Shown one piece after another: positions 2,836 through 46,000 of a DNA stretch of 64,000 nucleotides. The stretch lies in contig JAFQDF010000033.1 of the NCBI GenBank assembly GCA_017416185.1, forward strand, positions 92,634 to 156,633, given 5' to 3'. Made by a program: the position numbers and the translations under genes. The notes under the pieces were generated by a model. The model saw only the letters and a list, made by a program, of their open reading frames with translations. It was not told the DNA's origin and made no database searches. The first letter of the stretch is position 1; every line of letters starts with the position of its first letter. The DNA is from Clostridia bacterium. Its GTDB lineage: Bacteria > Bacillota > Clostridia > Oscillospirales > CAG-272.

Positions 2836-2853
2836 CCCCTGCAAAAGCAGGGG
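2836..2853 (-). other. GC-rich hairpin between surface-protein stop codon and ribozyme A
   Basis: CCCCUGC-UUUU-GCAGGGG with no downstream U-tract on the coding strand. Confidence 0.7.
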
Positions 2854-7477: not shown

Positions 7478-7505
7478 GTGGTTTTCCTCCATATAAAAAT
7501 TTTTA

Positions 7506-25243: not shown

Positions 25244-25387
25244 ATGCTGTAATCGAGGTGTTCATGATATAAGATAAAGCTACTATAACCGTTTGTTCTG
25301 TATAGAATGAACAGTTAAAGGTATTTATCTTATACAGAACAACCGTATAAGCGATCAAAAAACCTCCCCAACAGGGGAGGTTTTTAT

Positions 25388-26470
25388 CTAAGCTTTCTTT
25401 TTAACAGGCTTTTTTCCTGACAGTACATAATTTACCGTGGGTAAATACTTTTCCAGCAGAATACAAAAGATATTGATCAAAATCAGGGTAAGAACTATTG
25501 TAACTATAAAATTAGGGATAAACAGCTCCTCACGTCGAGGCAAGAAGATAGTGATCAACTTTGTAATAATTGCCGAAACATTCGTGTGTATGGCAAAAAC
25601 CATAAAGGATCGGGTGTATAAGGGTCTTTCCTTCATTCTGTCAATAAATGCATCAAATATACACCAAAGAGAAACTGCACAGAGTATATATACAAGGGTA
25701 GTAACAAACGGTTTTGCGGTATAGGTTGAGTCGGGGAATATATTTTTGAGTACGATTATAACAGTCAGAAATACCCCCGAAGCTATACGGGCGGGGATAG
25801 GAGATTTTTTGCACAGATGATCAAAATAATGCTTACCCAGAATGCCGCCGAAAATGAAGTAAATGATCGAATCCTCATTTGTGGAAACGGTTATGGGAAG
25901 ACTGATGTTAAATATCAGAAGCACCGATAAAACAAGCATTGTTCCCATGCCGACATATTTGTTCTTGATTACAAGATTTATCAACGGAGAAAGCACTATA
26001 AAAATCATCAGATCCAGGATAAACCAAAAGGGTATAACGCACTTATGCAGGAATATGCCGCTGAGGATATTGGGTAAAGTAATCTCAAAGATCGGTCTGC
26101 CTATGAAAAATCGGGAAATAAAGGTATGAGAACAAATAATATCAAAAAGCATCCATATTGTATTCCAGGCAAGGTAGGGTATCAACAGGGTAAACACTCT
26201 TGACTTGAGTTTGCCGAAATACTGTTTGACCTCAAAATTTCTGAAAAATGCTATTCCGGAAAGTATAAAAAACATGGGAACGGCAAAACGGGAAATTGAT
26301 TCGGTAAAGAAAAAATTGAATTTTTGATTTACAACAGATACTATTCCTTCTCCATGGCCATACTGTCCGTATGTTGATATGTGGATCATAAAAACAAGTA
26401 TGCTGAGCACATAAGAAATAATAGTCTTCTTTTTCCAGAATAGCTGTGGTGTTGAAGCATTCAGATCCAT
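25388..26470 (-). CDS. Acyltransferase family 3 (membrane O-acyltransferase)
   Basis: LVFMIH, RFAVPMFFILSG, LLIPYLAW, FWFI; multi-TM. Confidence 0.82.
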   Translation of the reverse strand: MDLNASTPQLFWKKKTIISYVLSILVFMIHISTYGQYGHGEGIVSVVNQKFNFFFTESISRFAVPMFFILSGIAFFRNFEVKQYFGKLKSRVFTLLIPYLAWNTIWMLFDIICSHTFISRFFIGRPIFEITLPNILSGIFLHKCVIPFWFILDLMIFIVLSPLINLVIKNKYVGMGTMLVLSVLLIFNISLPITVSTNEDSIIYFIFGGILGKHYFDHLCKKSPIPARIASGVFLTVIIVLKNIFPDSTYTAKPFVTTLVYILCAVSLWCIFDAFIDRMKERPLYTRSFMVFAIHTNVSAIITKLITIFLPRREELFIPNFIVTIVLTLILINIFCILLEKYLPTVNYVLSGKKPVKKKA

Positions 26471-28203: not shown

Positions 28204-28770
28204 TTACTTCTGTAATAATTTGATTACTTTATCTGTCAAGTTATTTTCAACGATGTAGTCATATACCGCCTTGGGTACCATATCGCTCCAGTCAACACCG
28301 TCTACGATCTTCTGTCTGATCTCGGTAGAGCACATTGCTTTCTCTCTCTTATCGAAAAGTACATGGGTACCGTATCCCAGCTCTCCCAGTCTGTGAAGCT
28401 TTTCATAGCCCCAATCATCATAGATAGTAAAGAAGGATGTAGCGTGGAGAGGTACATAGTTATACAGTATCTCAGGACGCTCTATAGGATAAGGAGTTAT
28501 CTCAAAATCCTCTCTCGGAATTCCAGCCTCCAAAAGGGCGAGCTTTACCATATTAAATCTTTCATAATAGGTAAAGGGGTTTGCTGCCGCTTCGCTTCTG
28601 TGAGGATCTATGTCTTCACGGATAAGCGTAGCGTTCTCGGGGGAAGTGATTCCCACGATGAGCTTTTTGCACTGCTCCTTTGCGAGCAGGGCGTAGTTCA
28701 GGTGATCATTGTGAAACAGTTGAAATCTGCCATGAATGAATCCTAATTCTACCATAGTTTCAACCTCCAA
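28204..28770 (-). CDS. Cytidylyltransferase / NMN-adenylyltransferase-like protein
   Basis: GRFQLFHNDH (HxGH-like), NPFTYYER, CSTEIR. Confidence 0.8.
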   Translation of the reverse strand: MEVETMVELGFIHGRFQLFHNDHLNYALLAKEQCKKLIVGITSPENATLIREDIDPHRSEAAANPFTYYERFNMVKLALLEAGIPREDFEITPYPIERPEILYNYVPLHATSFFTIYDDWGYEKLHRLGELGYGTHVLFDKREKAMCSTEIRQKIVDGVDWSDMVPKAVYDYIVENNLTDKVIKLLQK

Positions 28771-29689
28771 TATTTTTTGAAATTATATTTTTAATAATCT
28801 CTTTACGTAGGTAAGGAACCGGTGATATTGCAACCCCCGATTCAAAACGGACACCGAAGACCTCCTCGAGTCCTGTCTGACAAACCGAATTGTCAGTAAC
28901 AAAATAACTGCAACGGTGTTTTATATCTATAATGTTCATCAACCAGTTGTCCTTACCGTCGAAGTACTGCCTTATCTCAGGCAGCTTTTTTATTATGCCC
29001 TCCCCGTCCCAGACACAGAGCTGTGCCATACGGGATGGGAGAATATTATTATTGTTTATAGCCTTGATATCATTGAAAATTGCATTTTTCAGGTCAGACT
29101 CAACGCTTTTCTGCACCTCGGAAAAATAAGCAGCGCACCACTCTTCACCAATACTTTCTTTTCTGCACAGAGCCTTAAAAACCTCTCTGTCCTCCTCGGT
29201 TGTGTTTGATGAGGTAAGGTTAAGAGTATTGTCAAGGATAGCCGCAACAAGAAGTCTTGCCGTATGCCCCGACATTTTATCCTCAAGACCTGCCTTTTTC
29301 CACTCACGGTATATGAGAGTTGCTGCAGCACCGATAAACTCGATGTTCGTACCGTCACCGATACGGCTTGTCCAGTATTCCTCAAAGCCAACGTGATGGT
29401 CATAGACCTTGATGATATTATCCAAAGGAACATTATCCTTAAGGTAATTCGGGTCGGATACGTCAACAATTATATATTTTGCTTTTTCCTCAATCTCTTT
29501 CGGCAAAGAGGTTACAAGCAGCCCTTTTTCTATAAGGGAAGGACACACGCTGTAATTACAGGGAGCGTCCGAATAAGCTACAGCATCAATTCCCTTTAAG
29601 TGAAGTAGCTCTGCCAGGGCTATACTGCAGGCATAGGCATCTATATCAAGATAGGTGGCTCCTGCGGTGACTATTATACGGTTCATCAA
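28760..29689 (-). CDS. DHH-family phosphoesterase (Mn-dependent pyrophosphatase-like)
   Basis: DIDA, IIVD, YDHH, GAAAT, AILDNT, RK C-terminal motif. Confidence 0.8.
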   Translation of the reverse strand: MMNRIIVTAGATYLDIDAYACSIALAELLHLKGIDAVAYSDAPCNYSVCPSLIEKGLLVTSLPKEIEEKAKYIIVDVSDPNYLKDNVPLDNIIKVYDHHVGFEEYWTSRIGDGTNIEFIGAAATLIYREWKKAGLEDKMSGHTARLLVAAILDNTLNLTSSNTTEEDREVFKALCRKESIGEEWCAAYFSEVQKSVESDLKNAIFNDIKAINNNNILPSRMAQLCVWDGEGIIKKLPEIRQYFDGKDNWLMNIIDIKHRCSYFVTDNSVCQTGLEEVFGVRFESGVAISPVPYLRKEIIKNIISKNIGG

Positions 29690-29701
29690 AAAACTGATCC
29701 T

Positions 29702-31006
29702 TTAATTCTCTTTCTTTTTACTTTTGCGGTTTTTGAGCATTCCCTTGAGCATTACCGCCTCGGCGACCAGCTTGACATTGGGACGCATATCCTTAATTAA
29801 TACAGGGAACAGGAATATGGTGGAGATCTGGGTGATCAAGGTTGCTATAGCCGCACCGCTTGCGCCGAATATGGGAATAGCAAAGTAATTTAAGACTATA
29901 TTCAGAGCAGCAGAGCCCGCATACATATACTTCAGATATTTTTGCTTGCGCTCACACACTATCCATATATCTCTTGCTACACCTAAGTAAGAGAATGCAA
30001 CATACCATGTAACGATTCTCAAGGGTGTTGTGGCAGGAAGATAGGCCTCTCCGTATACAATTTTTATAAACAGAGGAGCTACTACAAAAACACAAGAGGA
30101 TGCAAACAGAGAAAAATAGAAGATTATAGCATAAAGGTTACGGTTGCCTTGTATATACTTTTCTTTGTTTTCATTATGATCTCGCATAATGCCCGGCTTC
30201 ATGGAATCTATGATTGCTGCCAGAATAAATGCCCACATCGTGCTTATAGAAAAAGCCAAGGCATAATAACCGACAGAGGTCTCGTCAAGCATCTGCTTGA
30301 GCATAAGCTTATCTGTAGCCGCATATACCGCAACCATAAGGCCGGAAAGTATATAGCTGCAGCTGACACTGAGAAGCTCCTTTGCCTTTCTCAGTGAAAA
30401 TGAAAGCCTGGGACCGTGATTTGTCTTATAGAATATAACCAACAAAACTGCGACTATAGCATAGTCCACAGAGTTTGCAATAGCAAACCACTGAGTGCTT
30501 TTGCCTGTCATCAGTAAAACTATACGGTAAGTAGAAGCAGCAAGATAGGATACAAGAGTTGCTATTGCATAATACTTTGAAAGAAGCTTTGACTGGAACC
30601 AATAATTGAAGGTATCAAAAACATGAAAAACAAGACTGATACAATAAAGCGCAACAACAACTATAGTTACCGTTTCACCGCGGTCAATAATACTGACTAT
30701 ACCTGTAATGGTACACAATGAAAGAAAACTGGATACTAATCGCAGGATCAGGGTAGTTCCTAATGTTTCGCCCTCCTCCTCGGGATGGTCTATAAAGTTT
30801 TTTACGATTACAGAATTGATACCCAAAGTACAAAAGGCATTGAAAAAGGTTGCAAAGGCTGTAGCATAATTGATCAGTCCGTAGTTTCCGGGGCCGAGAT
30901 ATCTTGCGCTTAACAGCCCTATGACAAAGGACAGTATTATATGTATGATTCTTCCGCCTATAAGCCATCCTGCATTGCGGGCTGTTCTGTTTTTAAAAAA
31001 TTTCAT
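29702..31006 (-). CDS. wzx: Polysaccharide flippase
   Basis: ARYLGPGNYG, TDKLML, VGYYALA, LNY..IP.FGASGAAIAT. Confidence 0.88.
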   Translation of the reverse strand: MKFFKNRTARNAGWLIGGRIIHIILSFVIGLLSARYLGPGNYGLINYATAFATFFNAFCTLGINSVIVKNFIDHPEEEGETLGTTLILRLVSSFLSLCTITGIVSIIDRGETVTIVVVALYCISLVFHVFDTFNYWFQSKLLSKYYAIATLVSYLAASTYRIVLLMTGKSTQWFAIANSVDYAIVAVLLVIFYKTNHGPRLSFSLRKAKELLSVSCSYILSGLMVAVYAATDKLMLKQMLDETSVGYYALAFSISTMWAFILAAIIDSMKPGIMRDHNENKEKYIQGNRNLYAIIFYFSLFASSCVFVVAPLFIKIVYGEAYLPATTPLRIVTWYVAFSYLGVARDIWIVCERKQKYLKYMYAGSAALNIVLNYFAIPIFGASGAAIATLITQISTIFLFPVLIKDMRPNVKLVAEAVMLKGMLKNRKSKKKEN

Positions 31007-32166
31007 TCTTTGTTTTCCTTAAACCAATTATCCTTTAAGATCTCTGCCTTACTGCAGGGACCGTCCTCAAAAAGCCCGGGATTATTTTCTCCTGACAGTA
31101 GCTTTTCCGACAGCTGCAAAAACCTCGAAGCAGCAGTCTTTGCATTCCATAATCCTGTCATTGTTTCATAAGCGGCACTTCCAAGCCGTTTTTGTTCTTC
31201 GGGATGATCCAACAAATACTTGACCTTATCGAACAACATTTCAGTATTTTCGGATTCGTATAAAAATCCGTTTTCACCGTCACGTACAAGAAAAGGTGCA
31301 GATCCCACCGCATGGCTTGTAACAACAGCACATCCGCTGTTCATAGACTCGTTGAGCACTGCCCCCCAGCCCTCCTGTCGGTCGCTGGTAAACAAATATA
31401 TGCCTGCTTCCTCCATATATGTTCTGACCTTTTCGGGAGGCATAGAACCGAGAAAAGTAATTTTATCCGAAACTCCAAGATCATATGAAAGTTGCTTTAG
31501 CTCTTCTTCCATTACTCCGCCGCCTACGATATTCAACAAAAAATCATAACCTGCTGATTTTAGCTTTGCGGCAAGGGTAATAACGTCATCGGGATGCTTC
31601 CAATCTATAAAACGTCCGCACCACATAATGGTGTTGGTTTTCTTTTGGGACATCAAAGAATCTGTATCATATTCATTTACCGCCGGAAAATATCCCCATT
31701 TATATGCACGGTTCTTATATAAACCCACACCTGCATAATCACCTGCCGCATATGCACTGGCACAAAGCATATAAATATTCTTATTTCCCATATCCCTCTT
31801 ATTGAGCTTTATACCGTGATAAAACTTTTTAAGATAAGATATTTTTTTCTTAAAAGGACGTTCTGTATATCTGAACAAAAGCTTGTTCTGACGTATACGG
31901 TCTTTAAGAATATCGGATGGCACACCGCCTGCAATAACTACATCGGCATCATTTATTAAGAATAATGCTTTTTTTCGTTGCTCCTCTCCTTCATAGCAAA
32001 GAAGCACATATGGGGGATTATCCTGTGCATAGCCTAATTTTCTTCTCTCCTCACGCATTACGGTAGTGGAGATAAAGGTAAAATCCGAGCCGAGTCTTTG
32101 ATACAGCTCTTCACAGAAGGGCTTTTGATGATGGTTAAAATAATTTGAAACAAATACTATTTTCAT
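31003..32166 (-). CDS. Glycosyltransferase family 4
   Basis: Real start MKIVFVSNY at 32166; GRFIDWK, EGWGAVLNE. Confidence 0.85.
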   Translation of the reverse strand: MKIVFVSNYFNHHQKPFCEELYQRLGSDFTFISTTVMREERRKLGYAQDNPPYVLLCYEGEEQRKKALFLINDADVVIAGGVPSDILKDRIRQNKLLFRYTERPFKKKISYLKKFYHGIKLNKRDMGNKNIYMLCASAYAAGDYAGVGLYKNRAYKWGYFPAVNEYDTDSLMSQKKTNTIMWCGRFIDWKHPDDVITLAAKLKSAGYDFLLNIVGGGVMEEELKQLSYDLGVSDKITFLGSMPPEKVRTYMEEAGIYLFTSDRQEGWGAVLNESMNSGCAVVTSHAVGSAPFLVRDGENGFLYESENTEMLFDKVKYLLDHPEEQKRLGSAAYETMTGLWNAKTAASRFLQLSEKLLSGENNPGLFEDGPCSKAEILKDNWFKENKE

Positions 32167-32194
32167 ATAACATCTGACCCTTTCTGAAAAATCC

Positions 32195-32266
32195 TGACCG
32201 ATTCTGCCGTAAATTTGATTTACGTTGCCCGCCGCACGCCCCGTGGAGGCTTCGATCATGTGCGGC
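32195..32266 (-). ncRNA. HDV-like self-cleaving ribozyme candidate (copy B)
   Basis: P1 GCCGCAC/GUGCGGC, P2 UGAUCGA/UCGGUCA, P3 GCC/GGC, L3 UCCACGG, P1.1 CC/GG, GGGCAAC, P4 CGUAAAU/AUUUACG, J4/2 GCAGA. Confidence 0.85.
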
Positions 32267-32296
32267 ACCCCCCGAAGGGGGAACACCGTAGGGTGT

Positions 32297-35200
32297 TTAT
32301 TTTAATATCAATCTGCCTTCAGCATCGAACTGATATGTACCTGCAGGCAACAGGCCGTTAGCTCTTGCCGCATTGAAGGAGTACGTACAGTTCTTGACTG
32401 CCTTTGAAGAGGAGTTGATGTAATAGTAGTTGCCTTCGTACTCAACGAGACCCTTACTCTTAACAGCTACACCGTTTTCATAGTAACGGATGTTGCCGTC
32501 GGGATCCCATACAAGTCCGTTTTTAGGTGCATTGGGATCGGGAAGTTTTTCAATTATCTGTGTTTCAGTAACACCACAGACTGTACAAGATCTTGTCTTG
32601 ATACCTGTTGAGGTGGTGGCAGGTGTTGTTACTACCCAGTCACCCCATATATGTGCTGAACAAACCAGCATAGGAATTTCCCTTGTATCGGTTGCGCCGC
32701 AGTTCACACAGGTGCCTGTTTCGATACCCTTTGAGGTATAGCTTGCAGGGGTCGTTACCACCCAGCTCATAATATGCTCGGCACAGATAAGCATGGGTAT
32801 CTCCCTTGTATCACTTGCCTTACAGTTGGTGCAGGTGCCTGTTTCGATACCCTTTGAGGTATAGCTTGCAGGGGTCGTAACTATCCAGCTCATAATATGC
32901 TCGGCACAGATAAGCATAGGCAGCTCTCTTGTCTCGCTTACCTTACAGTTGGCACAGGTGCCTGTTTCAATACCCTTTGAGGTATAGCTTGCAGGGGTTG
33001 TAACTACCCAATTCATAATATGCTCTGTACAGATAAGCATGGGGATCTCTCTTGTCTCTGCCTCGCCGCAGCCTGCACAGGTCCTTGTTTCCACACCTAT
33101 ATTGGTATAGCTTGCGGGAGTTGTCAGGAGCCAGTTGCTCCATACGTGGGTATGGTCAAGCATGGGAATTCTGCGGCTCTCGGTGACTGCACAATCGGCA
33201 CAGGTCCTTTCCTCAAGACCTACAGTACTTTCACTTGCCGGGGTCTTGACTGTCCAAGAGCTCCAGATATGCTCTGTACAAGTAAACATAGGAATTTCCT
33301 TGGTCTCGGTCTCCCCGCACTTGGGACAAGCTCTGCTCTCGATACCTTTTTCAATGTAGCTTGCAGGAGCTGTGATGAGCCAATCACTCCATACATGGGT
33401 ATGGTCAAGCGTGGGAATATCCCTTGCCTCGGTCTCACCGCAGAGGGTGCAAAGCCTGATCTCATTACCTACAGTATCCTCTGTTGCGGAGGATACAACT
33501 GTCCATACAGACCAGCTGTGAGCACAGGAAAGGGGAGAAATTTCACCCTTTTCGCTTGCTTTACAGTAATAGCAATCTCTTGACTGAAGACCTGCTTCAG
33601 TATCGGTGGCAGGAGTGATCACAGTCCACTCTGCCCAGAAATGAGCCTTGCAGTCAGCTACGGGAGGATCGATGATCCTGCCCTGTGCATCAAATTTATA
33701 GGTGCCTGCAGGGAGCAGACCGTTTGCTCTTGCTGCATTGAAGGAGTATGTACAGTTCTTGACTGCCTTAGAGGTGGAGTTGATGTAGTAGTAATCTCCA
33801 TTATATATAACAAGACCTTTACTCTTAACAGCTACACCGTTTTCATAATAACGTATGTCACCGTTGGCATCCTTCACAATGCCGTTCTTGGTAGCATTGG
33901 GATTCACAACGGGAATGCTCTGCGTTTCGGTCATACCGCACTGAGTACAGCCTCTTGTCTGAACTCCTGCAGAGGTGGTTGTGGCCTCGGTCATAATGAT
34001 CCAGCCGCCCCAGGTATGTGTGCAACCGGGAACTCCAAGCATTGGAATCTCTCTTTCCTCAGTGGCATTACATACTGCACAGGCTCTTGCTTCAATGCCT
34101 GCCTCTTCATAGCTTGCAGCGCTCTTTACCGTCCATATACCCCATATATGCTCTGCACATACGAGCATAGGAATTTCCTCGATTTCGACAGCACCGCAGT
34201 TTGCACAAACAGCAGTCATTTCGCCTGCAGAGGTATAGCTTGCAGGAGCAGTTATTGTATAACTCCAAATATGCTCTGTGCAAAGGAGCTTGGGAGTTTC
34301 TCTTGTCTCGGCTTCACCGCAGCCGACACAGGCTCTGGACTCAACGCCGGAGACTGTATAGCTTGCAGGAGCTGTAATAAGCCAGGAGCTCCATACATGA
34401 ACATGCTCAAGTATAGGTATCTCTCTGGTTTCAGCTTCGCCGCAGTTTGCACAGGTTCTGCTTTCAATACCCACAGAGGTCTCGGTCGCAGGAGTTGTTA
34501 CTGTCCACGCACTCCAGATATGCTCTGTACAAATGAGCATGGGAATTTCTCTTGTTTCTGTTTCACCGCAGCCTGCGCAGGTTCTGACTTCAGCACCGAC
34601 AGAGGTGTAAGTGGCAGGAACTGTTACAATCCAGTCGCTCCATACGTGAGTATGTTCAAGCAGGGGGATCTCTGCGGTTTCTTTTTCGCCGCAAAGGGTA
34701 CATTCTCTGGCTTGAACACCTGTAGAAGTCTCGGTTGCAGGAGTTGATACCACCCATTCGCCCCAGCTGTGTGTGCATATGAGCATGGGAATATTACGTG
34801 TTTCGCTTGCACCGCACTTGGGACAAGTTCTTGTTTCAACACCCTCGGACGTATAACTTGCGGGAGTTGTTACTACCCATTCGCCCCAAATATGTGTATG
34901 CGGCAGCTTGGGAATTTCTCTGGTTTCCTTTTCGCCGCAGGAACAGCTTCTGGTTTCAGTACCTACCGTATCCTCAGTTGCGGGAACTGTTACCGTCCAG
35001 GCACTCCAGCTGTGTGTATGTACCGAAAGCTCTCTTGTTTCGGATGTACCGCAGTAGCAGCATTTTCTGATCTCAAGACCCGCTGCGTCAGCGGTCTTCC
35101 ATTCTCCCCAATAGTGAGCCCTGCACTTGGTAACGGGGGGATCGATCAGCTTGCCTGTAGCATCGAACTTATATGTGCCTGCAGGAAGCAGACCGTTTGC

Positions 35201-38200
35201 CATAGACGCAGCGAAGGAGTAAGAACAATTCTTAACTGCTTTAAGGGAAGAATTGATATAGTAAAAGTTACCTTCATTATCTCTCACAAGACCTGCACGG
35301 GTAGCCTTGCCGTCAACATAGTAACGGACATCACCGTTTGAATCCTTGATAAGTCCGTTTTTCACAGAAGATGCAGGTATCTGCTGTGTCTCGGTCTTGC
35401 CGCACTCGGTACAGCCTCTGCCCTCTACACCTGCAGAAGAAGCGGTGGGTTGAGTATGGATGACCCACGCACCCCATATATGAGTACATACCTTAACAGG
35501 AACGATCTGTGTTTCGGTAAGCGTACAAAGGGTACACGATCTGGTCTCAATTCCTGTTTCGGTATAGCTTGACGGTACTGTTACCGTCCAAGCACTCCAC
35601 ACATGGGCAGTGCAGGTAACCTTAGGAATTATCAGCTCCTCATAAACGTCACAAAGCTTACAATCTCTTCTTTTGTAGCCCTCGGAGGTATAGGTTGCAG
35701 AGGTTACAATGACCCAGTTGCCAAATGTATGGGTTGCACACTCCACGTAGGGCGGATCGATCATCTTACCGTCGTCACCAAACTGATATGTACCTGCAGG
35801 CAAGAGACCGTTGGTCATTGACTCAGGAACGGTAAAGCTGCAGTTCTTTACAGCCTTGAGATCCGAGTGGATATAGTAATATGCTCCGTTGTCCTCTACG
35901 TCTCTTATAAGACCTGCATAGGTTGCAACGCTGTCAACATAGTAACGTACCTCACCGTCATCATCTCTGATAATGCCGTTTTTGATCCATTCTGCCTCAA
36001 CACCGTTTTCATAATAATGTGTCTTTTGATCGGGGCCCTTAAAAAGACCGGTATAAAGCACCTTGCCGTCAGAGGCGATAGCATAGCTGTTGCCGTTAAT
36101 ATCAACGCTGCCCGTTCCCTGAGACTTTACACCTGTCTTAAAGTAATACAGAACACCGTCAAAGGCATAAACGTCATCATTGAGCATTCGTCCCTCTGCA
36201 TCAAAGAAGTAGGTGCCTACGGGAAGCAATCCCTTGGTATATCCGCAGTAGAAGGACTGATTCTTTATGCCTGCGTATTTATTTGAAAAATAGAAGTAGT
36301 AATATTCTCCGTCTACCTTGTACATTCCGTACTGGGAGACGCCGTTTTTAACGTAATAGTGATTGCCGTTCCATCTGGCAAGGCCTGTATAATTCCATTT
36401 GCCCTGGCAGGCACCGTATTCGTCAAAAATATACCAGGTGTATGTATCGGATGCGTCATTTTGATCATCTACCCAGCGGGTACCTGTTGCAACGTATCCG
36501 TCCTTGTCGATGCAGTAGTCCTTACCGTCGATGGTGTACCAGGTCATACAGCTGCTTCCGCCCTTGAGACAGTCAGGGCCCTCATAATACTTATGGCCTG
36601 CGGCAGAGTGATACCATACACCGGATACCAGCTTGCCGTCGGGGTAGAACTCAAAGGTAACGTAGCCGTTATTATATGTATCTACAGAGGTATAGGTCTT
36701 GGTATCAAAGTAATACCAGGAGCCGCCCATGCTTACCCAGCCGCCCAGCAGCTTTCCGTTTACCAGATAACAGCTCTTTCCGTTCAGCTCAACAAGTCCG
36801 GTGCCGGTCTTTACATCACCGCAGACGCAAACGAGCTGTCCGTTTTTAACCTTATATATATGTCCTGTTGCAAGAGTGGTTTCACCCCACTTGACAACAG
36901 AGTCACAGCCGTAGCAGAAGCTTCTGCCCGTATACCCTGCCTCCTGACAGTTGCCTGCCTTGTCGGCGATAGCCACGGGAGTATGCTCGTGGAAGCCCAC
37001 ACCTGCCGAAATACAGCTGTTGAGCCATTCGTTTGCGCCCTCTGTACTGTCCTTTTCGGAATAGTTAAAGAACAGCTCGGTATCAACCGATATATCATTC
37101 ATTCCGAAAGCTCCGAAAACCTCGGATCCGTAGGAATCTACATATGTTACCTCGCCCTTTTCAAGAGCTATTTCCACACTCTGAGCCCAGATAACACCGT
37201 CACGGACCAGCTCTGCGGGAGATTTATCCGAGGAAGAGGTCCAGGTACGCACAGGTATTGTGGCAAGTATTGTCTCACCTGTGGAAATAACCTCACCTGT
37301 TCGCTCAATAACGATAGTTGCGATGTTATCCGCACTTTGAACAGCAGACGTTACACCAAAGCCTGCAGCAAGGGTCATACCCTCAAGCTCCCAGGAGGAA
37401 GCATTGTTAAGATCAAGGGACAGCGTCACCTTGTCTAATGTTTCTATTTGGGTAGCGGTAACGTCCAGCTGATAAACAGAGCCTATGGGCAGACGGTCGG
37501 CATCAGGATCGTGAGGCTCAACTCTGACACTTGAAAGCCCGCTGCCGCTCTTAATAATGATCTTTGCCTGTGTATAGGCGATATTTCCCTTGTTATCGGC
37601 GATTTTGAACATAACGGTATGAATACCGTCTGCCAGGGTTATGCCCGAAAGGGTAATTTTTTCGTTTTTATAGGTACAAGCTACCTCTACACCGTCAATA
37701 AATGCCTGTGCAGAGCGCTCATTAATGCCCGAAGCATTTGCAAAATCTGTATTTTCCGCAACAGATACCTCATAGGAGGCCTTGTTATAGCCGACTGTCT
37801 GTCCATTAAGAGCGTTTACCGCTCCGTTTGTGGGATCAATAACGCAAATATCGGAAAATACGGGAGCATAACGGTCATCCACCGCCTCCGAATAATCCAC
37901 TGTAATATCGTCGATATAAAATACAAATCTGCCGTTAAGATTTGTATTGTCAGTACTGTTGTCATCTACCGTTACGGTAATACTGTCAAAGGAATCGCCG
38001 CCCGGTGCTGCACTTATATAATTCCAACCCTCTGTGAGATCATATAGCTCGCCGACTTCGATACCGCCGTTGCCGAATTTTATTTCGGCATTACGTGCTT
38101 CGTAAGGAGCATAAAGCCAGAAGCCTACTGCAGTCGCATCGGTAGTGTCAAGTGCGGGGAAATTCACGGTAATGCTGTTATTGCCGGTTGTGTCAAGTGT

Positions 38201-39880
38201 GGTGAAATCACACTCAAAGGCCAAAGCCCAATCTCCGTTTTTGACCTTACCACCGGATTTATTGATAACATGGAGGTTACCGCAAGCTCCGTTTTCCGCA
38301 GAAACAGACCAGCCTGTAAGCTTTTCTGCCTCAGTTTCTATCTCGCCTTCGTTTTCAAAGGTATATACCACATTGGAGCCGTTGCCCAACGTGATGGAAG
38401 CAGAAGCGGTTGCACTACCTACAGTTGCGGAAATAACACCCGATGCTGCACCGACTCCCTCTGCGGTAGCCGTAAAGTAAAAGCCGTCGATTGACCCGAT
38501 ACTGTTATCCGACAGAGAAAAGCTCACGTCCGATTCTTTGAGCACCACGGTATTGCCTTGATACGAAGCATTGAGCACAACGGCTGTCTTTGCCCCGTAA
38601 GCCACTACCATACTTGACGATGCAAATGACAGCTTATCGGGCATAGCTATATGAATCGTATGCTCTCCGACGATCTCACCTTCAACACTTAACTGAACGG
38701 TTACGTCGCCGAGCTTACCGTTGGATACGAATATTCCTCTTTCAACAGTACCGAAGGAGGGATCTGTCAGCTGCCAAACGGCATCCACAGGAATATCTGC
38801 CGCAGCACCTGTATAGTCTGTACCTGTTGCAGAGAAAGAAACTGTACTGCCGGGAGTATAATAATCATATTCTGAAGAGATATGTGCCTGATCGAGAGTT
38901 CCCGAAGCAGGTGCGGTGGATATAACAAGAACTCCGTTGGTGGTGGGACGCTCCGCACCGTCGGAGGGCTTATTCTGCATCTTAAGCTCTTCTCCCGGAC
39001 GCTGTGACAGGAAGGTGGAGGATCCGCCTCCGTCACCGTTGGTCGCGTAAACGCAACCGAGGGACAGCATAAATTCTGCCATTTCATAGCAATTAAAGCC
39101 CACAGAATGAGGCGCCAGACGGCCCTCATTTACAACAAGGACTATCGTACCGTCTGCCTTGACACCCATAAAGGAACGGGATGCAGGCTCGGTGGGATCG
39201 TCGATACCGTAAATATTTTTGCCGTTTTCCAGAAGGGGATGGAAGTTTGCGGGGATAACCTGCTCCTCCCAGCCTGTGATGGCATCATAGGTCTGACGGA
39301 TCTCGGTTTTGGGAATATTGTCGGGACGCTTTACACCGTCCTTTTCGTCAAAATTAATTACAAGACATGTCCATGCACCGAAATAACGGCTCTGGCTGTT
39401 GGAATATTCAACTCCGTCCATAATGAGAAGACCCAGAGGCTCACCCACAAGCTCGGGGTGCTGGGCATAGTAGTCTGTATCATACCAATGAAGGGTGGTA
39501 TTCATAGCGGCAACCACGTTACCGTATCCGTGCTCCTCGGCATATTTTGCCTGCTCGGACATAACCTGGGTGCCGTATTTTTTTGCCTGCAAGCCCTCGG
39601 CCATACCCTTTGCGCTGGGCATAACCTTGGTGTAAGGATTATGTATGTCGATCTCCACAACGTGATTTACCTGACGTTTGCTGCCCGCAGCATTGTTCAG
39701 GATGATCTCGGACTCGGTTATACCCGGCGCAAGCTCCCAGTCTGTTTTGGAAATAACGCTGTAATAACCGTCAGGACTGTCCTTGAAGTCAACAGCAAGT
39801 GAGGCTATGGGAAAAATACCAATTAAAAAGATAAAACAAAGAAGAATGGAGATGATTTTGGTGAAAAGATCGGTTTTCAT
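32297..39880 (-). CDS. Giant secreted surface protein (~2527 aa): NAGPA-like phosphodiester glycosidase domain, aromatic cell-wall-binding-like modules, many Cys/His repeats
   Basis: GAAAGGAG RBS before ATG 39880; signal peptide; ASRSFMG, NGDGGGSS; ~38-aa repeats C.H.W..W....PA.....G.E.R.C..C. Confidence 0.82.
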   Translation of the reverse strand: MKTDLFTKIISILLCFIFLIGIFPIASLAVDFKDSPDGYYSVISKTDWELAPGITESEIILNNAAGSKRQVNHVVEIDIHNPYTKVMPSAKGMAEGLQAKKYGTQVMSEQAKYAEEHGYGNVVAAMNTTLHWYDTDYYAQHPELVGEPLGLLIMDGVEYSNSQSRYFGAWTCLVINFDEKDGVKRPDNIPKTEIRQTYDAITGWEEQVIPANFHPLLENGKNIYGIDDPTEPASRSFMGVKADGTIVLVVNEGRLAPHSVGFNCYEMAEFMLSLGCVYATNGDGGGSSTFLSQRPGEELKMQNKPSDGAERPTTNGVLVISTAPASGTLDQAHISSEYDYYTPGSTVSFSATGTDYTGAAADIPVDAVWQLTDPSFGTVERGIFVSNGKLGDVTVQLSVEGEIVGEHTIHIAMPDKLSFASSSMVVAYGAKTAVVLNASYQGNTVVLKESDVSFSLSDNSIGSIDGFYFTATAEGVGAASGVISATVGSATASASITLGNGSNVVYTFENEGEIETEAEKLTGWSVSAENGACGNLHVINKSGGKVKNGDWALAFECDFTTLDTTGNNSITVNFPALDTTDATAVGFWLYAPYEARNAEIKFGNGGIEVGELYDLTEGWNYISAAPGGDSFDSITVTVDDNSTDNTNLNGRFVFYIDDITVDYSEAVDDRYAPVFSDICVIDPTNGAVNALNGQTVGYNKASYEVSVAENTDFANASGINERSAQAFIDGVEVACTYKNEKITLSGITLADGIHTVMFKIADNKGNIAYTQAKIIIKSGSGLSSVRVEPHDPDADRLPIGSVYQLDVTATQIETLDKVTLSLDLNNASSWELEGMTLAAGFGVTSAVQSADNIATIVIERTGEVISTGETILATIPVRTWTSSSDKSPAELVRDGVIWAQSVEIALEKGEVTYVDSYGSEVFGAFGMNDISVDTELFFNYSEKDSTEGANEWLNSCISAGVGFHEHTPVAIADKAGNCQEAGYTGRSFCYGCDSVVKWGETTLATGHIYKVKNGQLVCVCGDVKTGTGLVELNGKSCYLVNGKLLGGWVSMGGSWYYFDTKTYTSVDTYNNGYVTFEFYPDGKLVSGVWYHSAAGHKYYEGPDCLKGGSSCMTWYTIDGKDYCIDKDGYVATGTRWVDDQNDASDTYTWYIFDEYGACQGKWNYTGLARWNGNHYYVKNGVSQYGMYKVDGEYYYFYFSNKYAGIKNQSFYCGYTKGLLPVGTYFFDAEGRMLNDDVYAFDGVLYYFKTGVKSQGTGSVDINGNSYAIASDGKVLYTGLFKGPDQKTHYYENGVEAEWIKNGIIRDDDGEVRYYVDSVATYAGLIRDVEDNGAYYYIHSDLKAVKNCSFTVPESMTNGLLPAGTYQFGDDGKMIDPPYVECATHTFGNWVIVTSATYTSEGYKRRDCKLCDVYEELIIPKVTCTAHVWSAWTVTVPSSYTETGIETRSCTLCTLTETQIVPVKVCTHIWGAWVIHTQPTASSAGVEGRGCTECGKTETQQIPASSVKNGLIKDSNGDVRYYVDGKATRAGLVRDNEGNFYYINSSLKAVKNCSYSFAASMANGLLPAGTYKFDATGKLIDPPVTKCRAHYWGEWKTADAAGLEIRKCCYCGTSETRELSVHTHSWSAWTVTVPATEDTVGTETRSCSCGEKETREIPKLPHTHIWGEWVVTTPASYTSEGVETRTCPKCGASETRNIPMLICTHSWGEWVVSTPATETSTGVQARECTLCGEKETAEIPLLEHTHVWSDWIVTVPATYTSVGAEVRTCAGCGETETREIPMLICTEHIWSAWTVTTPATETSVGIESRTCANCGEAETREIPILEHVHVWSSWLITAPASYTVSGVESRACVGCGEAETRETPKLLCTEHIWSYTITAPASYTSAGEMTAVCANCGAVEIEEIPMLVCAEHIWGIWTVKSAASYEEAGIEARACAVCNATEEREIPMLGVPGCTHTWGGWIIMTEATTTSAGVQTRGCTQCGMTETQSIPVVNPNATKNGIVKDANGDIRYYENGVAVKSKGLVIYNGDYYYINSTSKAVKNCTYSFNAARANGLLPAGTYKFDAQGRIIDPPVADCKAHFWAEWTVITPATDTEAGLQSRDCYYCKASEKGEISPLSCAHSWSVWTVVSSATEDTVGNEIRLCTLCGETEARDIPTLDHTHVWSDWLITAPASYIEKGIESRACPKCGETETKEIPMFTCTEHIWSSWTVKTPASESTVGLEERTCADCAVTESRRIPMLDHTHVWSNWLLTTPASYTNIGVETRTCAGCGEAETREIPMLICTEHIMNWVVTTPASYTSKGIETGTCANCKVSETRELPMLICAEHIMSWIVTTPASYTSKGIETGTCTNCKASDTREIPMLICAEHIMSWVVTTPASYTSKGIETGTCVNCGATDTREIPMLVCSAHIWGDWVVTTPATTSTGIKTRSCTVCGVTETQIIEKLPDPNAPKNGLVWDPDGNIRYYENGVAVKSKGLVEYEGNYYYINSSSKAVKNCTYSFNAARANGLLPAGTYQFDAEGRLILK

Positions 39881-39950
39881 AAAGGATCTCCTTTCCGGTT
39901 TATATATTTCAAATTGACCGTTACAGGTAATTTGCAAACCCTCGGTTTGA

Positions 39951-40026
39951 ACGACCGAATCAGCCGAAATCTTAAATGATTTCGTTGCCCGCCGCACGCC
40001 CCGTGGAGGCTTCGATTATGTGCGGC
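39951..40026 (-). ncRNA. HDV-like self-cleaving ribozyme candidate (copy C)
   Basis: P1 GCCGCAC/GUGCGGC, P2 AUCGAA/UUCGGU, P3 GCC/GGC, L3 UCCACGG, GGGCAAC, P4 CGAAAUC/GAUUUCG, J4/2 GCUGA. Confidence 0.85.
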
Positions 40027-40056
40027 ACCCCCCGAGGGGGGAACACCGTAGGGTGT

Positions 40057-43000
40057 TTATTTTAATATCAATCTGCCTTCTGCATCGAACTGATATGTAC
40101 CTGCAGGCAACAGGCCGTTGGCTCTTGCTGCGCTGAAGGAGTATGTACAGTTCTTAACTGCCTTGGAGGTGGAGTTGATGTAGTAGTAGTTGCCTTCGTC
40201 ATCCTGAACAAGACCCTTACTCTTAACAGCTACACCGTCAACGTAGTAACGGATGTTGCCGTCAGCATCCCATACAAGACCCTGCTTAAGATCGGAAGGA
40301 ACCTTAGCTATTGTCTGTGTCTCTGTTGCGCCGCAGTTTCCGCAGGTTCTGGTCTCTACACCTGTCTCGGTATAGGTAGGCTCCTTGGTTACTACCCAAT
40401 CACCCCATACGTGCTCTGTACAAACCAGCATGGGAATGGTGTTTGTTTCAGACATACCGCAGCCTGCACAGGTTCTGGTCTCAACACCTGCAGTGGTATA
40501 GGTAGGCTCTGTGGTTACTGTCCAATCACCCCATACGTGAGTATGCTCAAGCATGGGAATGATGCGTGTTTCTGTCTCACCGCAAAGAGTACATGTTCTG
40601 GTCTCTGTGCCGTTTGCAGTCTCGGTTGCGGGAGTGGTTACTACCCATGCGCTCCAATCGTGTGCACATACGTTGATAGCAGGAATTTCCTCTGTATCGG
40701 TTGCGTTACAGTAGTAGCAGTCTCTGGTCTGGAGGCCGGACTCGGTCTCGGTAGCATCGGTGATAATCACCCATGCGCCCCAGAAGTGTGCGTTACAGTC
40801 AGCAACGGGAGGATCGATCATCTTACCGGTTGCATCGAACTTGTATGTACCTGCAGGGAGCAGACCGTTAGCTCTTGCTGCATTGAAGGAGTATGTGCAG
40901 TTCTTAACTGCCTTAGAGGTGGAGTTGATGTAGTAGAAGTCACCGTTGTACTTAACAAGACCCTTACTCTTAACAGCTGCACCGTTTTCATAGTAACGAA
41001 TATCACCGTTGGCATCCTTCATAACGCCGTTCTTAACAGCATTAGGATCTACTACGGGAATATCCTGAGATTCGGTCGCACCGCACTCGGTACAGCCTCT
41101 TGCCTCAACACCTGCAGTAGTGGTGGTAGCCTCGGTCATAACGATCCAATCACCCCATACGTGTGTGCAGGGAGGAGGATCAAGCTTGGGAACAGACTGT
41201 GTTTCGGTTGCACCGCAGTTAGCACAGGTCTTGGTTTCAACACCCTCGGTGGTGTAGGTAGGCTCTGTGGTTACTACCCACTCACCCCATGCGTGCTCTG
41301 TGCAAACGAGCTTAGGAATCTCTCTGGTCTCTGTTTCACCACAGCCTGCACAGGTCTTGGTCTCAACACCTGCTGCAGTATAGCTTGCGGGAGTTGTAAC
41401 TACCCACTCACCCCATACGTGTGTATGGTCAAGCATAGGAATGGTCTGTGTTTCGGTTGCACCGCAGACATCACAGGTTCTGGTCTCAACACCTGTGGAG
41501 TTCTCGGTTGCGGGAGTTGTAACTACCCATGCGCCCCATGTATGTGTGCATACAAGCATGGGAATCTCTCTTGTTTCGGTTTCACCGCACTTGGGACATG
41601 TTCTGCTCTCTTCACCTACAGAAGTATAGGTTGCGGGAACTGTTTCTGTCCACTCGCCCCATACGTGTGTATGAGGAAGCTTGGGAATCTCTCTTGTTTC
41701 GGTTTCGTTACAAGCGCAGGTTCTGGTCTCAACACCTGTGGTGTCCTCAGTTGCGGGAGTTGTAACTACCCATTCGCCCCAAACGTGAACGTGCTCAAGT
41801 ACGGGGATCTCACGGGTATCGGTCGCATGACAGTAGTAGCATGTACCAAGCTCAACACCTGTAGTGGTCTCGGTTGCGGGAGTTGTAACTACCCAGTTGC
41901 CGAGGAAGTGAGCGTTACACTCAGCTACGGGAGGATCGATCATTCTGCCCTGTGCATCGAACTTATAAGTTCCTGCAGGAAGCAGACCGTTGGACATAGC
42001 TGCGTTGAAGGAGTAAGAACAGTTCTTAACTGCCTTGAGAGAGGAGTTGATGTAGTAGAAGTAACCGTCATTGTCTCTTACAAGACCTGCTCTGGTTGCC
42101 TTACCGTCAACATAGCAACGAACGTCGCCGTTAGCATCCTTCATAATACCGTTCTTAACATCGGATGCAAGTACGGGGATTTCCTGAGTCTGGCTCTCAC
42201 CACACTCGGTACAGCCTCTGCTCTCAACACCTGTGGAGGTGGTGGTTGCAGGAGTCATAACTACCCAGAAGCCCCATGTATGTGTACATACCTTAACGGG
42301 AGCTACCTGAGTTTCTGCAAATGAACAAAGTGTACATGTTCTGGTCTCGATACCTGTCTCGGTATAGGTAGGAGGAGTTGTAACAACCCACTCGCCCCAA
42401 ACGTGCTCTGTACATTCAACCTTAGGAATAACTTCAGTTTCAACAACGTCACACAGTCTGCATTCTCTCTGTCTGAGACCGTCTGCTGTGTAGGTTGCAG
42501 GAGTAACGATAACCCACTTGCGCCATGTATGCTCAGCACACTCAACGTAAGGAGGATCGATCATCTTACCGTCAGCACCGAACTGATATGTGCCTGCGGG
42601 AAGTAATCCGTTGGACATTTCTGCGTTGAAGGAATATGTGCAGTTCTTAACTGCTACCATGGAGGAATTGATGTAGTAGTAGTTACCGTTCATGTCTCTT
42701 ACAAGACCTGCACGGGTAGCCACACCGTCAACATAGTAACGAACTTCGCCGTCATTGTCTCTGATTACACCGTTCTTGACCCATTCGGTCTGTACACCGT
42801 TTTCGAAGTAGATGAGATTGCCGAGAGCATCCTCAAGAAGACCGGTGTAAAGTACGGTACCGTTTGCATCAATATCCCAATAATCGCCGTCAACTGTAAC
42901 AGTGCCGGGACCCTGGTTAGGCTGGCCATTTACAAAGTAAGAAAGCTTGCCGTCAATAACGTAATACTCATTATTGAGCATCTTACCGTCAACATCAAAG

Positions 43001-46000
43001 GCATATGTGCCCACAGGCATAAGGCCCTTGGTGTATCCGCAATAGAAGGACTGGTTCTTGATTGCGCATCTGTAATTTGTAAAGTAGAAGTAGTAATATT
43101 CACCGTCTACCTTGTACATACCGTACTGGTTTATACCGTCCTTGAGGTAGTACAGGTTACCGTTCCACTCATGGAGACCGTTACCGTAGTATCTGCCCTG
43201 GCTTACGCCGTACTCGTCAAAGTTATACCAGTAGAAGGTATCGGAACCGTCGTTCTGGTCGTTTACCCAACGGGTACCGGTCATAACGTAACCTGTCTTA
43301 TCAAAGAGGTAGTCCTTACCGTCGATGGTATACCAGGTCATACAGCTCTTACCGCCTCTGAGGAAGGAAGGACCTTCGTAGTACTTATGACCGGCATCAG
43401 AATGATACCACTGACCGGAAACGAGCTTACCGTCGGGATAGAACTCATAGGTTACATAACCGTTATAAAGTGTATCAACAGAAGCGTATGTGGTAGTATC
43501 GAAGTAATACCACTCCTCAGCAATTGTCATCCAACCGCTGTTGAGCTTACCGTTAACGAGGTAGTAGCTCTTGCCGTCAATAGTTTCAAGACCTGTGGTC
43601 ATCTTTACCTTGCCGCAATCGCAGGCAATGGTATCATCAACGATCTTGTAAACGTGCTCGGTCATGGGAATGGTAGTACCCCATTCAACTACAGAGTTAC
43701 AGCCCTCACAGAAGGTTCTGCCGGTGTAACCAACCTCGGCACATGTTGCAGCCTTATCCTCGAGAGCTACGGGAGTATGAACGTGAGTTGTACCGTGTTC
43801 TGCAAAGTAAGTCTTATCCATAGCTGCGTTGGAGGTATATGTTTCTGTATCAACGTGGAACTCCTCGTTAGAGAAGGTAGAGGTCTTACCGTTGGTATGA
43901 GTAATAAGACCCATATCAACATCCATCTTCATGTCCTGGGGGAAGAAGTTGTATGTTGTCCAATATGTCTGTGCTGTAAAGCCGGGAACCTTAATATCGG
44001 TATCAAAGTACAGGATACGAACAGGGATCTTAGCGAGAACTGCTGCACCTGTCTGAGCATTGATGTCTGTACGTGTGAAGGTTATGGTAGCTGTGTTGGT
44101 CTCTTCATCGATGGTGTACTCAGCGGTGAAGTCCTGAGCAAGCTCCATGTGGTCGAGCTGCCAGTGGTTTACACTGTTAAGGTCGATCACAGTCTCAACC
44201 TTCTGAATTGTTTCGATATTGGTTGCCTCAAGGTTCATCCAATAGATAGAACCGTAAGGAATTCTGTCAAGTGTTGCGTCTGCGGGAACAAGCTTGAGTG
44301 TGGAAGCTGTAGAACCACCCTCTACCTTGACAACACGGATGATAACAGACTTGTTACCCATGTTATCGCAGATCTCAAACTTAATACGGTGATAACCGTC
44401 TGCTACAGTAAGGTTGTTTGCAGAAATCACGCCGTTTGCAAATGTAGAAGCTACCTCTACACCGTCAATATATACCTTTGCAGTATCTGCATTAAGGCCG
44501 GATACGTTGTAGAGAGGCTGATCAACACCCATAGCGTCAGGCAATGTTGTAGCATCAGCTACTGCTGCGGAAAGGTTAAGAGTGTTGTTGGTTAAAGTAA
44601 CGACCTCACGCTTAACGAGAGGAGTTGTACCGTCAACGTAGATCTTGTCAAATACAGGATTTTCTCTGTCGTCAACTGCCTCAGAGTAGTCTACTGTAAA
44701 GCTGTCAAGATAGTATGTGTAAGGACCGTTGATAGTACCGTTGGTCTGCCACAGAAGGTTATTCTTTGTTCTGTGAGTAACGATTGCAAGGAAGAACTCG
44801 CCCTTCTCAGTCAGCTGACCGGTGGTCTGACCGTCTGCATCCTGCTTGTTGAACTGATTGGAATACTTCAGTGCAACCTTTTCAAAATCACTGATGTCCA
44901 TAGACATATAATGCCAGCCGGATTCATCAATATTGTAGTAAACGTTTTCGGATTCCATCATGCTAACGGTTGCCAGAGTGTCATATGTACCGTCACCGTT
45001 GGAGTCGGTCATATAGTGGCCCTGGACCCAACACTGGATGTTATCCTCCGGAACGTAAAGCCAGAAGCCAACTCTGCGTGCATTTTCAAGAATGACCGCA
45101 TCTCCGTCAACACCAAGTCTGATCCAAGCGTACTCACTGGAGTCGGATTTCTTGGAAGACAAGCCGTTGATATTCAAACGCATGGAGTAATCGCCGTCGT
45201 GAACCTGCCCGTTGGTACGATCTGCCAAAGACAGCTTCAAATAATAATCACGGTAATCGTTGGTTCTGCTGTTAATAACGTTCCACTCATCAATGTCAGT
45301 CTGACCGTCCTCAAAGTCCCAAAGGACCTCGGAGCCCTTACCGATATTCAACTGAACCGTTGCGGTAAGCTCGGGATTGGCATTATAGGTTGCGGTAACC
45401 GTACTTGTAAGATCAGCAGGGGCATTAGCCTCATCTACTGCTGTAAAGTTAAGACCGCTGAAGCTACCGAGTGTGCTGTTGTTTGTGGTAAAGGTAACGT
45501 CATTAGAACCGAGACCGATCTCATAAACACCGTCGCCAACAGTTGCCTTAACGGGAACGATTGCAGTTTTACCAAAGGGAATGGTAACAACAGGCTGCTC
45601 AAAGGACAGTGCCTCGGGAGCTGCGATGTTTACAGAATGCTCGCCTACGACCTTACCGTCATAGACCATCTGAGCTGTAACCTTACCCTCGGTACCGTTG
45701 GAGGTGAACACACCGTTTTCGATGGTACCCATGCCCTCTTCCTTGATCTGCCACTCTACGTCTGCAGGAATATCAACCTTGGTACCTACTGCGTCGGTGC
45801 CGAGCGCTGAAAATGAAACAGAGCTACCGGGAGTATAGTAGTCATAGTCGGAAGAAATGGTCGCACGTGCAAACACGCCGTCTGCGGGTGCATCGGAAAT
45901 AACCAGGATAGTACTTGTTGTAGGTCTTTCACCGCCGTCTGCAAGAGAGCAGTTGACCTTAAAGTCCTCACCGGGACGCTGAGTACAGAAGGTGGTAGAT

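Follow-up and report, generated by a model that had tools for sequence, protein, structure and literature searches.

Giant genes and HDV-like ribozymes in the window

The window analyzed here, a 64,000-nucleotide (nt) stretch of the genome of a Clostridia bacterium (contig JAFQDF010000033.1 of assembly GCA_017416185.1), contains two co-directional polysaccharide gene clusters in which very large genes, hereinafter giants, are placed mid-cluster and are followed on the same strand by RNA motifs of the hepatitis delta virus (HDV)-like ribozyme type. One of these clusters (25388-57568, minus strand), delineated from open reading frames (ORFs) and Pfam matches, encodes, in this order, a Bac_transf initiating transferase, sugar-modifying enzymes, glycosyltransferases of the GT4 and GT2 types, EpsG, LicD, two giants, and a GT1 glycosyltransferase, followed by a Wzx-type flippase, a cytidylyltransferase, a phosphatase and an acyltransferase. 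The giants of this cluster are gene C (40057-46926, minus strand; 2289 amino acids) and gene B (32297-39880, minus strand; 2527 amino acids from an ATG at 39880 with the Shine-Dalgarno sequence GGAAAGGAG; the longest ORF extends over 32297-39997, and a start at 39997 would overlap ribozyme C, described below). Giant gene A (2870-7636, minus strand; up to 1588 amino acids) belongs to the other polysaccharide cluster of the window. Pfam assigns a NAGPA (phosphodiester glycosidase) domain to all three giants; it lies close to the N-terminus and is preceded by a signal-like hydrophobic segment. In giant C, this domain occupies residues 123-342 (PF09992, E 2e-21).

Exactly 30 nt past the TAA stop codon of each of the genes B and C, on the minus strand, lies the first nucleotide (G1 at 32266 and 40026, respectively) of a motif that the initial annotation of this DNA had placed in the HDV family. 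This assignment is borne out: both copies exceed the curated Rfam threshold, helices P1, P3 and P4 covary among homologues, and P2 is kept. Specifically, the search with HDV-family models that had been suggested as a check returned RF02682 (HDV-F-prausnitzii, the HDV ribozyme from Faecalibacterium prausnitzii; curated gathering score, 44 bits) at both sites, with 50.5 bits (E 2.4e-6) for ribozyme C (40026-39953, minus strand, where 39953 is the end of the 3' strand of P2) and 46.8 bits (E 1.7e-5) for ribozyme B (32266-32194, minus strand), and these are the only two Rfam matches in the whole window at gathering thresholds (cmscan). A third match to this model, copy A (2834-2767, minus strand; 41.3 bits, E 3e-4), which is presumably the copy A of the initial annotation, falls short of the gathering score and is seen only when the window is searched with Rfam models at permissive E-value thresholds; its G1 is located 35 nt 3' of the ORF of giant A. 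The entire assembly (2.55 Mb in 45 contigs) contains these three matches to RF02682 and no others. A chance match is ruled out by the Rfam scores, by a 44-nt pattern (from P1 to GGGCAAC) that matched copies B and C only and none of 100 dinucleotide shuffles, and by the RF02682 search of 14 control genomes, which gave no matches. By the Rfam threshold, copies B and C are members of RF02682 and copy A is a sub-threshold relative; the ribozymes of the window are new members of a known family.

When read back from the sequence, the elements described previously for copies B and C, namely, the 7-bp P1, the 7-nt L3, the GGGCAAC segment and the 3' strand of P2, are all in place, as are the 3' tails of the motifs B and C, GGCAGAAUCGGUC and GGCUGAUUCGGUC. 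P2 in both copies is formed by GAUCGA with UCGGUC, and P4 (7 bp in both) differs yet stays paired, as had been noticed: CGUAAAU/AUUUACG in B vs CGAAAUC/GAUUUCG in C. The CC of L3 and the GG of GGGCAAC that would form P1.1 are present in all three copies of the window and are invariant in the homologue set described below, in which their positions were in part fixed by the search pattern. The predicted catalytic cytosines are at 39963 in ribozyme C and at 32206 in ribozyme B (minus strand; coordinates read off the sequence), and at 2780 in copy A. Copy A possesses a different, fully compensated P1 (GUCACAC/GUGUGAC), a different P2 and a P4 of only 2-3 bp, that is, a short-P4 variant, and every one of its helices is visible in the alignments of homologues. 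Minimum free energy (MFE) folding from the stop codon to P2, limited to nested pairs and employing no model, recovered P1, P3 and P4 in all three copies, together with hairpins upstream.

When 32100-32700 is compared with 39860-40460 (minus strand), B and C show about 95% identity over the last approximately 110 nt of the gene, the spacer and the ribozyme as far as P4 (our own count on the printed alignment), whereas the proteins B and C are 49% identical over a body of 1973 amino acids and P4 and everything downstream differ. This pattern suggests gene conversion or, alternatively, strong constraint at the nucleotide level on the 3' end of the gene and the adjoining module.

Conservation of fold, hairpin and gene context

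Homologues were collected from one-genome-per-species contigs with a degenerate 26-letter core pattern, which found 69 stretches, and with a covariance model that comprised P1, P3 and P4 only, was seeded with 12 of the earliest matches and scored 79 matches in the collected loci. The pattern fixed L3, J1/4, some of P3 and two nucleotides in the 3' strand of P1, thereby excluding the L3 of F. prausnitzii. Five of the 69 stretches, all from non-Clostridia (L026, L052, L078, L082 and L086), have no match to the covariance model, so the pattern alone is insufficient. Prior to counting, we dropped the identical sequences (L030, which equals L027, and L087, L063, L056 and L031, duplicates of loci already in our set) and two truncated matches (L065, for the P2 and hairpin counts, and L087:7963), and left out of the set of strong ribozymes two matches that scored weakly with our model (G117 in L021, 27.1 bits, and L070 of Acidimicrobiales, 30.7 bits).

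Among the 74 distinct aligned rows, pairing is standard in 98.2% of the pair cells, and changes on both sides of a pair are found in 10 of the 14 modeled pairs (6/7 in P1, 1/3 in P3 and 3/4 in P4). The covariation score of this alignment was reached by none of 500 shuffles, and in controls with slid partners, pairing dropped to 24-55%. The P2 pseudoknot, which lies outside every model, was assessed with a script in 70 sequences: the best helix between J1/2 and the tail averages 6.56 bp, vs 4.06 bp with shuffled tails, and is 5-9 bp long in 69 of the 70, with 51 distinct helix sequences (for example, AUCAAA/UUUGAU, AUCGAU/AUCGAU, AUCAGU/ACUGAU and AAAUAAC/GUUAUUU). Thus, covariation among homologues, the absence of which had been named as grounds for rejecting the ribozyme assignment, is found in P1, P3, P4 and P2. 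The first position of J4/2, the site of the putative catalytic cytosine, is a cytosine in all 70 aligned homologues; its role in catalysis is a prediction.

Position +1 is less uniform. In column 1 of alignment A2, G is present in only 45 of the 72 rows (36 G-C and 9 G-U pairs), A paired with U in 22, and a non-standard pair in 5. In locus L023, a copy after a giant gene (4493-4567) has lost part of the GGGCAAC core, and the G that should precede the J4/2 cytosine is replaced by A. This copy has probably decayed, and an intact one is found 3 kb downstream, behind a 704-amino-acid homologue of the C-terminal part of a giant.

A feature that the initial annotation had not mentioned is a hairpin abutting the predicted cleavage site. 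In the window, the 30-nt spacers C (40028-40057, minus strand) and B (32268-32297, minus strand) each fold into tandem hairpins (40057-40042 and 40041-40028; 32297-32282 and 32281-32268), followed by a single U (40027 and 32267, respectively) before the predicted cleavage site; hairpin A (2836-2853, minus strand) has a 7-bp stem, CCCCUGC/GCAGGGG, and is followed by a G at 2835. Across the homologues, the MFE of the 30 nt preceding G1 is at or below -10 kcal/mol in 69 of 70 (mean, -16.3 kcal/mol), vs only one of 244 control windows located 150-450 nt upstream, inside ORFs. The same fraction, 69/70, holds for stems with 5-8 G-C pairs, for hairpins with the 3' end 0-3 nt from G1, and for the number of distinct 30-mers; 65% of the nucleotides of the 5' arm are C, and at many loci, B and C included, a second hairpin stands just before the first. 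The nucleotide at -1 is A in 38 cases, U in 31 and G in one, the latter being copy A. An intrinsic terminator, that is, a hairpin directly followed by a U-run, is ruled out at these sites: the hairpin is followed by one nucleotide and then by P1, with no U-run, and the scan called no terminator-like site on the minus strand at the modules. Promoter-like sites occur at chance level (32 found vs 30.9 expected). On the plus strand, terminator-like sites were called at 32281-32298 and at 40041-40058, where a T-rich run comes after the first spacer hairpin; these sites could stop antisense transcription entering the giant genes. Taken together, the compensatory changes in P1, P2, P3 and P4, the invariant J4/2 cytosine and the kept hairpins argue that these RNA structures have been under selection throughout a deep divergence.

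The gene context is conserved as well. The initial annotation had pointed out the repeated placement of the motif at internal gene boundaries of glycan operons and proposed a search for the same context in related genomes; the observation holds and is far more general. In 65 of the 71 strong, non-identical ribozymes, an ORF on the same strand that is homologous to the giants (blastp, E < 1e-5) ends at most 250 nt before G1; 9 of these 65 loci encode the reference proteins themselves, and the remaining 6 of the 71 cannot be judged, having at most 182 nt of upstream sequence. In other words, a giant homologue precedes the ribozyme, at a distance of 20-240 nt, in all 65 assessable loci, all of which come from assemblies of gut or rumen Clostridia. 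A NAGPA domain is found in 16 of the 17 loci with at least 5 kb of upstream sequence, the exception being L023 7566, behind a 704-amino-acid homologue of the C-terminal part of a giant, and Pfam detects it in 9/9 complete giants tested, namely, the three of the window and all 6 tested upstream of ribozymes in relatives. Searches that employed only the Rfam model and so were free of our own pattern gave 13 matches in 7 of the 151 genomes of the family (the genome analyzed here, G000, included) and matches in 3 further genomes among 150 others of the order, with the same architecture in 12/13 and 3/3 matches, respectively. In their records, the true matches are labeled as uncultured Clostridia of the gut and rumen (Oscillospiraceae, Acutalibacteraceae, Ruminococcus, Lachnospiraceae, Faecousia and the like).

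Co-directional polysaccharide genes follow close behind the ribozymes, and a heuristic search placed the next start codon supported by a Shine-Dalgarno sequence at a median of approximately 30 nt past P2 (62 of 71 loci evaluable). In the window, ribozyme B is followed by a group-1 glycosyltransferase gene (31003-32166, minus strand; PF00534, E 4.9e-35), the ATG of which is about 27 nt past P2, and ribozyme A by a family-2 glycosyltransferase gene (1775-2743, minus strand; PF00535, E 1.6e-37). Where giants stand in tandem, every one has a module, as with C and B in the window, with two to three giants in G020 and with three in a contig labeled Lachnospiraceae. A search of open-access full texts found no papers in which HDV-like ribozymes are tied to polysaccharide operons, glycosyltransferases, processing within operons or these giants, which agrees with the earlier suggestion that this use may be undescribed, although it does not prove that none has been published.

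The two weak matches set aside above differ in context. The one in L021 (4523-4609; G117; 36 bits with RF02682), with an L3 close to the Rfam consensus, lies past genes for NTP-transferase/HAD and SIS-domain (sugar-nucleotide) proteins, with neither a strong upstream hairpin nor a giant gene, and may represent a separate context of the ribozyme family. The other, L070 2765-2838, from a metagenome-assembled genome labeled Acidimicrobiales and hence outside the Clostridia, likewise has no upstream hairpin or giant gene, and may be a chance match or a distant relative.

Ribozyme-less paralogues and known systems

The genome provides a natural control. It encodes eight NAGPA frames: the three giants with a ribozyme, four other giants and one small protein. 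The flanks of the four other giants gave no match to our covariance model even with the filters off (best score, 11.6 bits), and in all three for which the 3' end is on the contig, the gene is followed by a long hairpin and then a T-run, a classical intrinsic terminator, with the next gene at a distance of more than 100 nt or encoded on the opposite strand. The same holds for ribozyme-less giants in two relatives, in which 4/4 evaluable genes have a hairpin with a T-run and no match to our model, so that terminator ends are found in 7 of the 7 evaluable ribozyme-less NAGPA giants overall. Given this contrast, the paralogues that close a transcription unit have a hairpin with a U-run, whereas those embedded in an operon have a hairpin with a ribozyme. 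The module after giant NAGPA genes and its complementarity with terminators look like a new use of the RF02682 family.

The closest known relatives are the ribozymes of F. prausnitzii (RF02682; drz-Fpra-1 and drz-Fpra-2), which belong to the same family as copies B and C by score and share the nested double pseudoknot, the GGGCAAC-type J1/4 and the J4/2 cytosine; L3 is CUCCACG in the window copies vs CUCUACG in the RF02682 consensus. Co-transcriptional cleavage in vitro has been described for drz-Fpra-2 (PMC7668259). According to a review (PMC6765202), the F. prausnitzii copy on record is located upstream of glmM, and a metabolite link has been suggested. In contrast to this copy, with which we compare by description, the ribozymes of the window stand behind giant NAGPA genes in polysaccharide clusters, and a conserved hairpin abuts their cleavage site.

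Theta ribozymes, minimal HDV-like ribozymes of gut phages, are located directly 3' of tRNAs and have been proposed to make tRNA 3' ends; the main text of the paper that describes them mentions neither hairpins nor terminators, and only 12 matches in bacterial genomes are given there (PMC10879173). In both cases, a stable RNA structure immediately precedes the cleavage site and would receive its 3' end through cleavage, and the habitat is the gut; the copies in the window differ in that they follow a simple hairpin at the end of an mRNA, possess a P4 (in B and C) and reside in a chromosomal operon rather than in a phage. A theta ribozyme engaged in tRNA processing can be ruled out for the window, where no tRNA is present, P4 is 7 bp long in B and C, and the operon is chromosomal. 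Ribozymes with the same core do occur in phage tRNA arrays, in IMG/VR viral contigs (L102-L177), with 129 matches, of which 48 are unique, and several per locus (e.g., L151 10430-13991 and L107 3438-7009). In 39 of the 48 unique ribozymes, a hairpin ends at most 3 nt before +1; a tRNA follows within approximately 5 nt in some, and only one lies directly 3' of a tRNA according to ARAGORN. A giant homologue is encoded in only one of these loci (L146).

Like intrinsic terminators and the stabilizing hairpins between cistrons, the hairpin of the module is G+C-rich, lies just past a stop codon and would end and protect the upstream message. Unlike in a terminator, there is no U-run, and the proposed 3' end would come from self-cleavage of the RNA and not from polymerase release or a protein RNase; if so, the downstream genes would still be transcribable. 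The glmS ribozyme, too, is a self-cleaving RNA in Gram-positive mRNA for cell-envelope sugar metabolism, with 5'-OH and 2',3'-cyclic phosphate products; it differs in having another fold and Rfam family, being part of a 5' leader, requiring glucosamine 6-phosphate as a cofactor and lowering expression, as stated in the review (PMC6765202). For the ribozymes of the window, this analysis gave no sign of a cofactor. Likewise, the neighboring Pfam annotation contains no pointer to a mobile retroelement ribozyme (R2/L1Tc-like), an origin that we considered and set aside.

We label the giants surface proteins because of the signal-like N-terminus, the size and the choline-binding repeats present in the giants of two relatives; in the giants of the window, cell-wall-binding repeats gave sub-threshold Pfam matches only and no NCBIfam matches. 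Giants of relatives (L018, L019 and L022; G140) combine NAGPA with calcineurin-like/purple acid phosphatase domains, tyrosine-phosphatase-like domains and choline-binding repeats, and in the window, LicD phosphotransferases adjoin the giants. The phosphoesterase domains and the neighboring LicD hint at a role in the processing of phosphodiester-linked envelope glycans. Two further features of the cluster with giants C and B are worth recording. A 309-amino-acid ORF (28760-29689, minus strand) has a sub-threshold match to the DHH family (E 1.9e-4), a family that includes small-RNA exonucleases and phosphoesterases; a tie between this protein and the ribozyme products is pure speculation. A sub-threshold match to the Rfam Phe_leader model (25263-25389, plus strand; 39.3 bits vs a gathering score of 55), in the 3' part of which a G+C hairpin is flanked by an A-run and a U-run, most likely marks the cluster end with a terminator that works in both directions, and not a leader.

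Proposed role and its alternatives

The explanation that we consider rather probable is that these RNAs are active-type HDV-like self-cleaving ribozymes of the RF02682 kind that are used as an intercistronic RNA-processing module. The motif with its covariation, the gene context, the abutting hairpin and the contrast with terminators are observed; what we infer is that cleavage takes place in vivo, that the genes are transcribed together and that the stability of the RNA is affected. Under this scheme, the polysaccharide cluster would be read as a long polycistronic RNA. Past the stop codon of the giant NAGPA gene, the polymerase would first make a very stable hairpin, or two of them, followed by the ribozyme, which would fold into the nested double pseudoknot and cut 5' of position +1, 0-3 nt past the last hairpin. 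The giant mRNA would keep a hairpin-capped end with a 2',3'-cyclic phosphate and so acquire the 3' protection typical of a terminator, with transcription not being ended, and the downstream message would carry its 5'-OH within P1 of the folded ribozyme, from which a few tens of nucleotides lead to the next ribosome-binding site. In this way, the stability of the mRNA for the giant would be uncoupled from that of the messages for the downstream enzymes and, therefore, we propose, so would the level of giant expression. In the tandem of C and then B, the message for B would be freed as a separate mRNA, structured at both ends.

Several considerations weigh against this explanation. Copy A is under the Rfam gathering score, and its high score with our purpose-built model is not usable as evidence and is discounted because copy A is in the model seed. 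The alignment behind the pair counts was fitted to the model and hence is biased towards structure, the search pattern fixed several positions, and the homologues are kin rather than independent samples. Because most ribozymes of phage tRNA arrays (39/48 unique) are likewise preceded at once by a hairpin, the hairpin of the module possibly is a general folding aid or an accessory of this ribozyme subgroup, not a protector of mRNA ends. The ribozyme could simply have been inherited along with the 3' end of the giant gene. Furthermore, RNase J1 acts on the 5'-OH product of the glmS ribozyme. Cleavage by that ribozyme leads to degradation of the downstream mRNA by cellular RNases, as reported in the review (PMC6765202), and given this precedent, a 5'-OH could destabilize the genes downstream of the module.

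The phage hairpins and the glmS precedent also fit the alternative that the ribozyme mainly serves the genes downstream, either as a defined, structured, context-independent 5' leader, that is, an insulator, or as a mark for 5'-OH-dependent decay as with glmS, the hairpin only shielding the folding of the ribozyme from the 3' sequence of the giant. Upstream helices aid the folding of HDV ribozymes, engineered ribozyme insulators exist, the next start codon is indeed near, and in phage tRNA arrays, there is no mRNA 3' end that would need protection. Nevertheless, the 5-8 G-C pairs, the mean MFE and the frequent second hairpin exceed what a folding insulator needs, and this alternative leaves unexplained both the terminators at the same position in ribozyme-less paralogues and the occurrence of the module only after giants and not before other genes of these operons; we regard it as unlikely. 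Modulation of self-cleavage by a sugar phosphate or nucleotide sugar of the pathway, which would tune the downstream polysaccharide genes, appears less likely still. Such modulation, by glucosamine 6-phosphate, has been reported for the F. prausnitzii ribozyme next to glmM. A possible metabolite-dependent role of that copy is mentioned, with reference to Passalacqua et al. 2017, in the review (PMC6765202), the Rfam family (RF02682) is the same, and the operons here make sugar polymers. However, no further conserved domain is present to which a ligand could bind, P4 is short and variable, with as few as 2-3 bp in copy A, and the downstream gene changes from locus to locus (GT1, GT2, another giant and others).

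The least probable of the alternatives, in our estimate quite remote, is that the hairpin and the ribozyme are passengers that have accompanied the 3' end of the giant cassette through inheritance, duplication and gene conversion and serve no function in the operon today. The near-identity of the 3' ends and modules of B and C, to be compared with the far lower identity of the proteins, and the sporadic distribution (7/151 genomes in the family and 3/150 among the others of the order) are what such a history would leave behind, as is the apparently decayed copy that lacks the GGGCAAC core (L023 4493-4567). Compensatory changes in all four helices, the invariant catalytic cytosine and the retention of hairpins of which 69/70 differ in sequence speak against it.

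Beyond the use as an intercistronic processing module, we tentatively put forward, as a more general proposal that may well prove too broad, a way of forming an mRNA 3' end that is independent of proteins and does not require termination: a cassette of a hairpin and a ribozyme would replace the terminator at giants internal to operons, so that the message is excised and its level set independently. Such a cassette, made up of a structured RNA, a cleavage site and a ribozyme, would serve gut Clostridia and their phages alike as a general means of making RNA ends, and theta ribozymes at tRNAs would be a special case of it.

In the open-access literature consulted, the only contexts described for bacterial HDV-like ribozymes are the glmM-linked case and the phage tRNA case. 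The present finding provides a tightly conserved, repeated context, an accessory hairpin and a natural control in the form of the paralogues with terminators and thereby leads to a testable hypothesis on function. If this hypothesis is true, self-cleavage would join the known bacterial means of setting unequal expression within one operon, and the embedding of 7-kb surface-protein genes in envelope-polysaccharide clusters of abundant gut and rumen Clostridia would be explained. The hairpin together with the ribozyme would also constitute a compact natural part for operon engineering in Gram-positive hosts.

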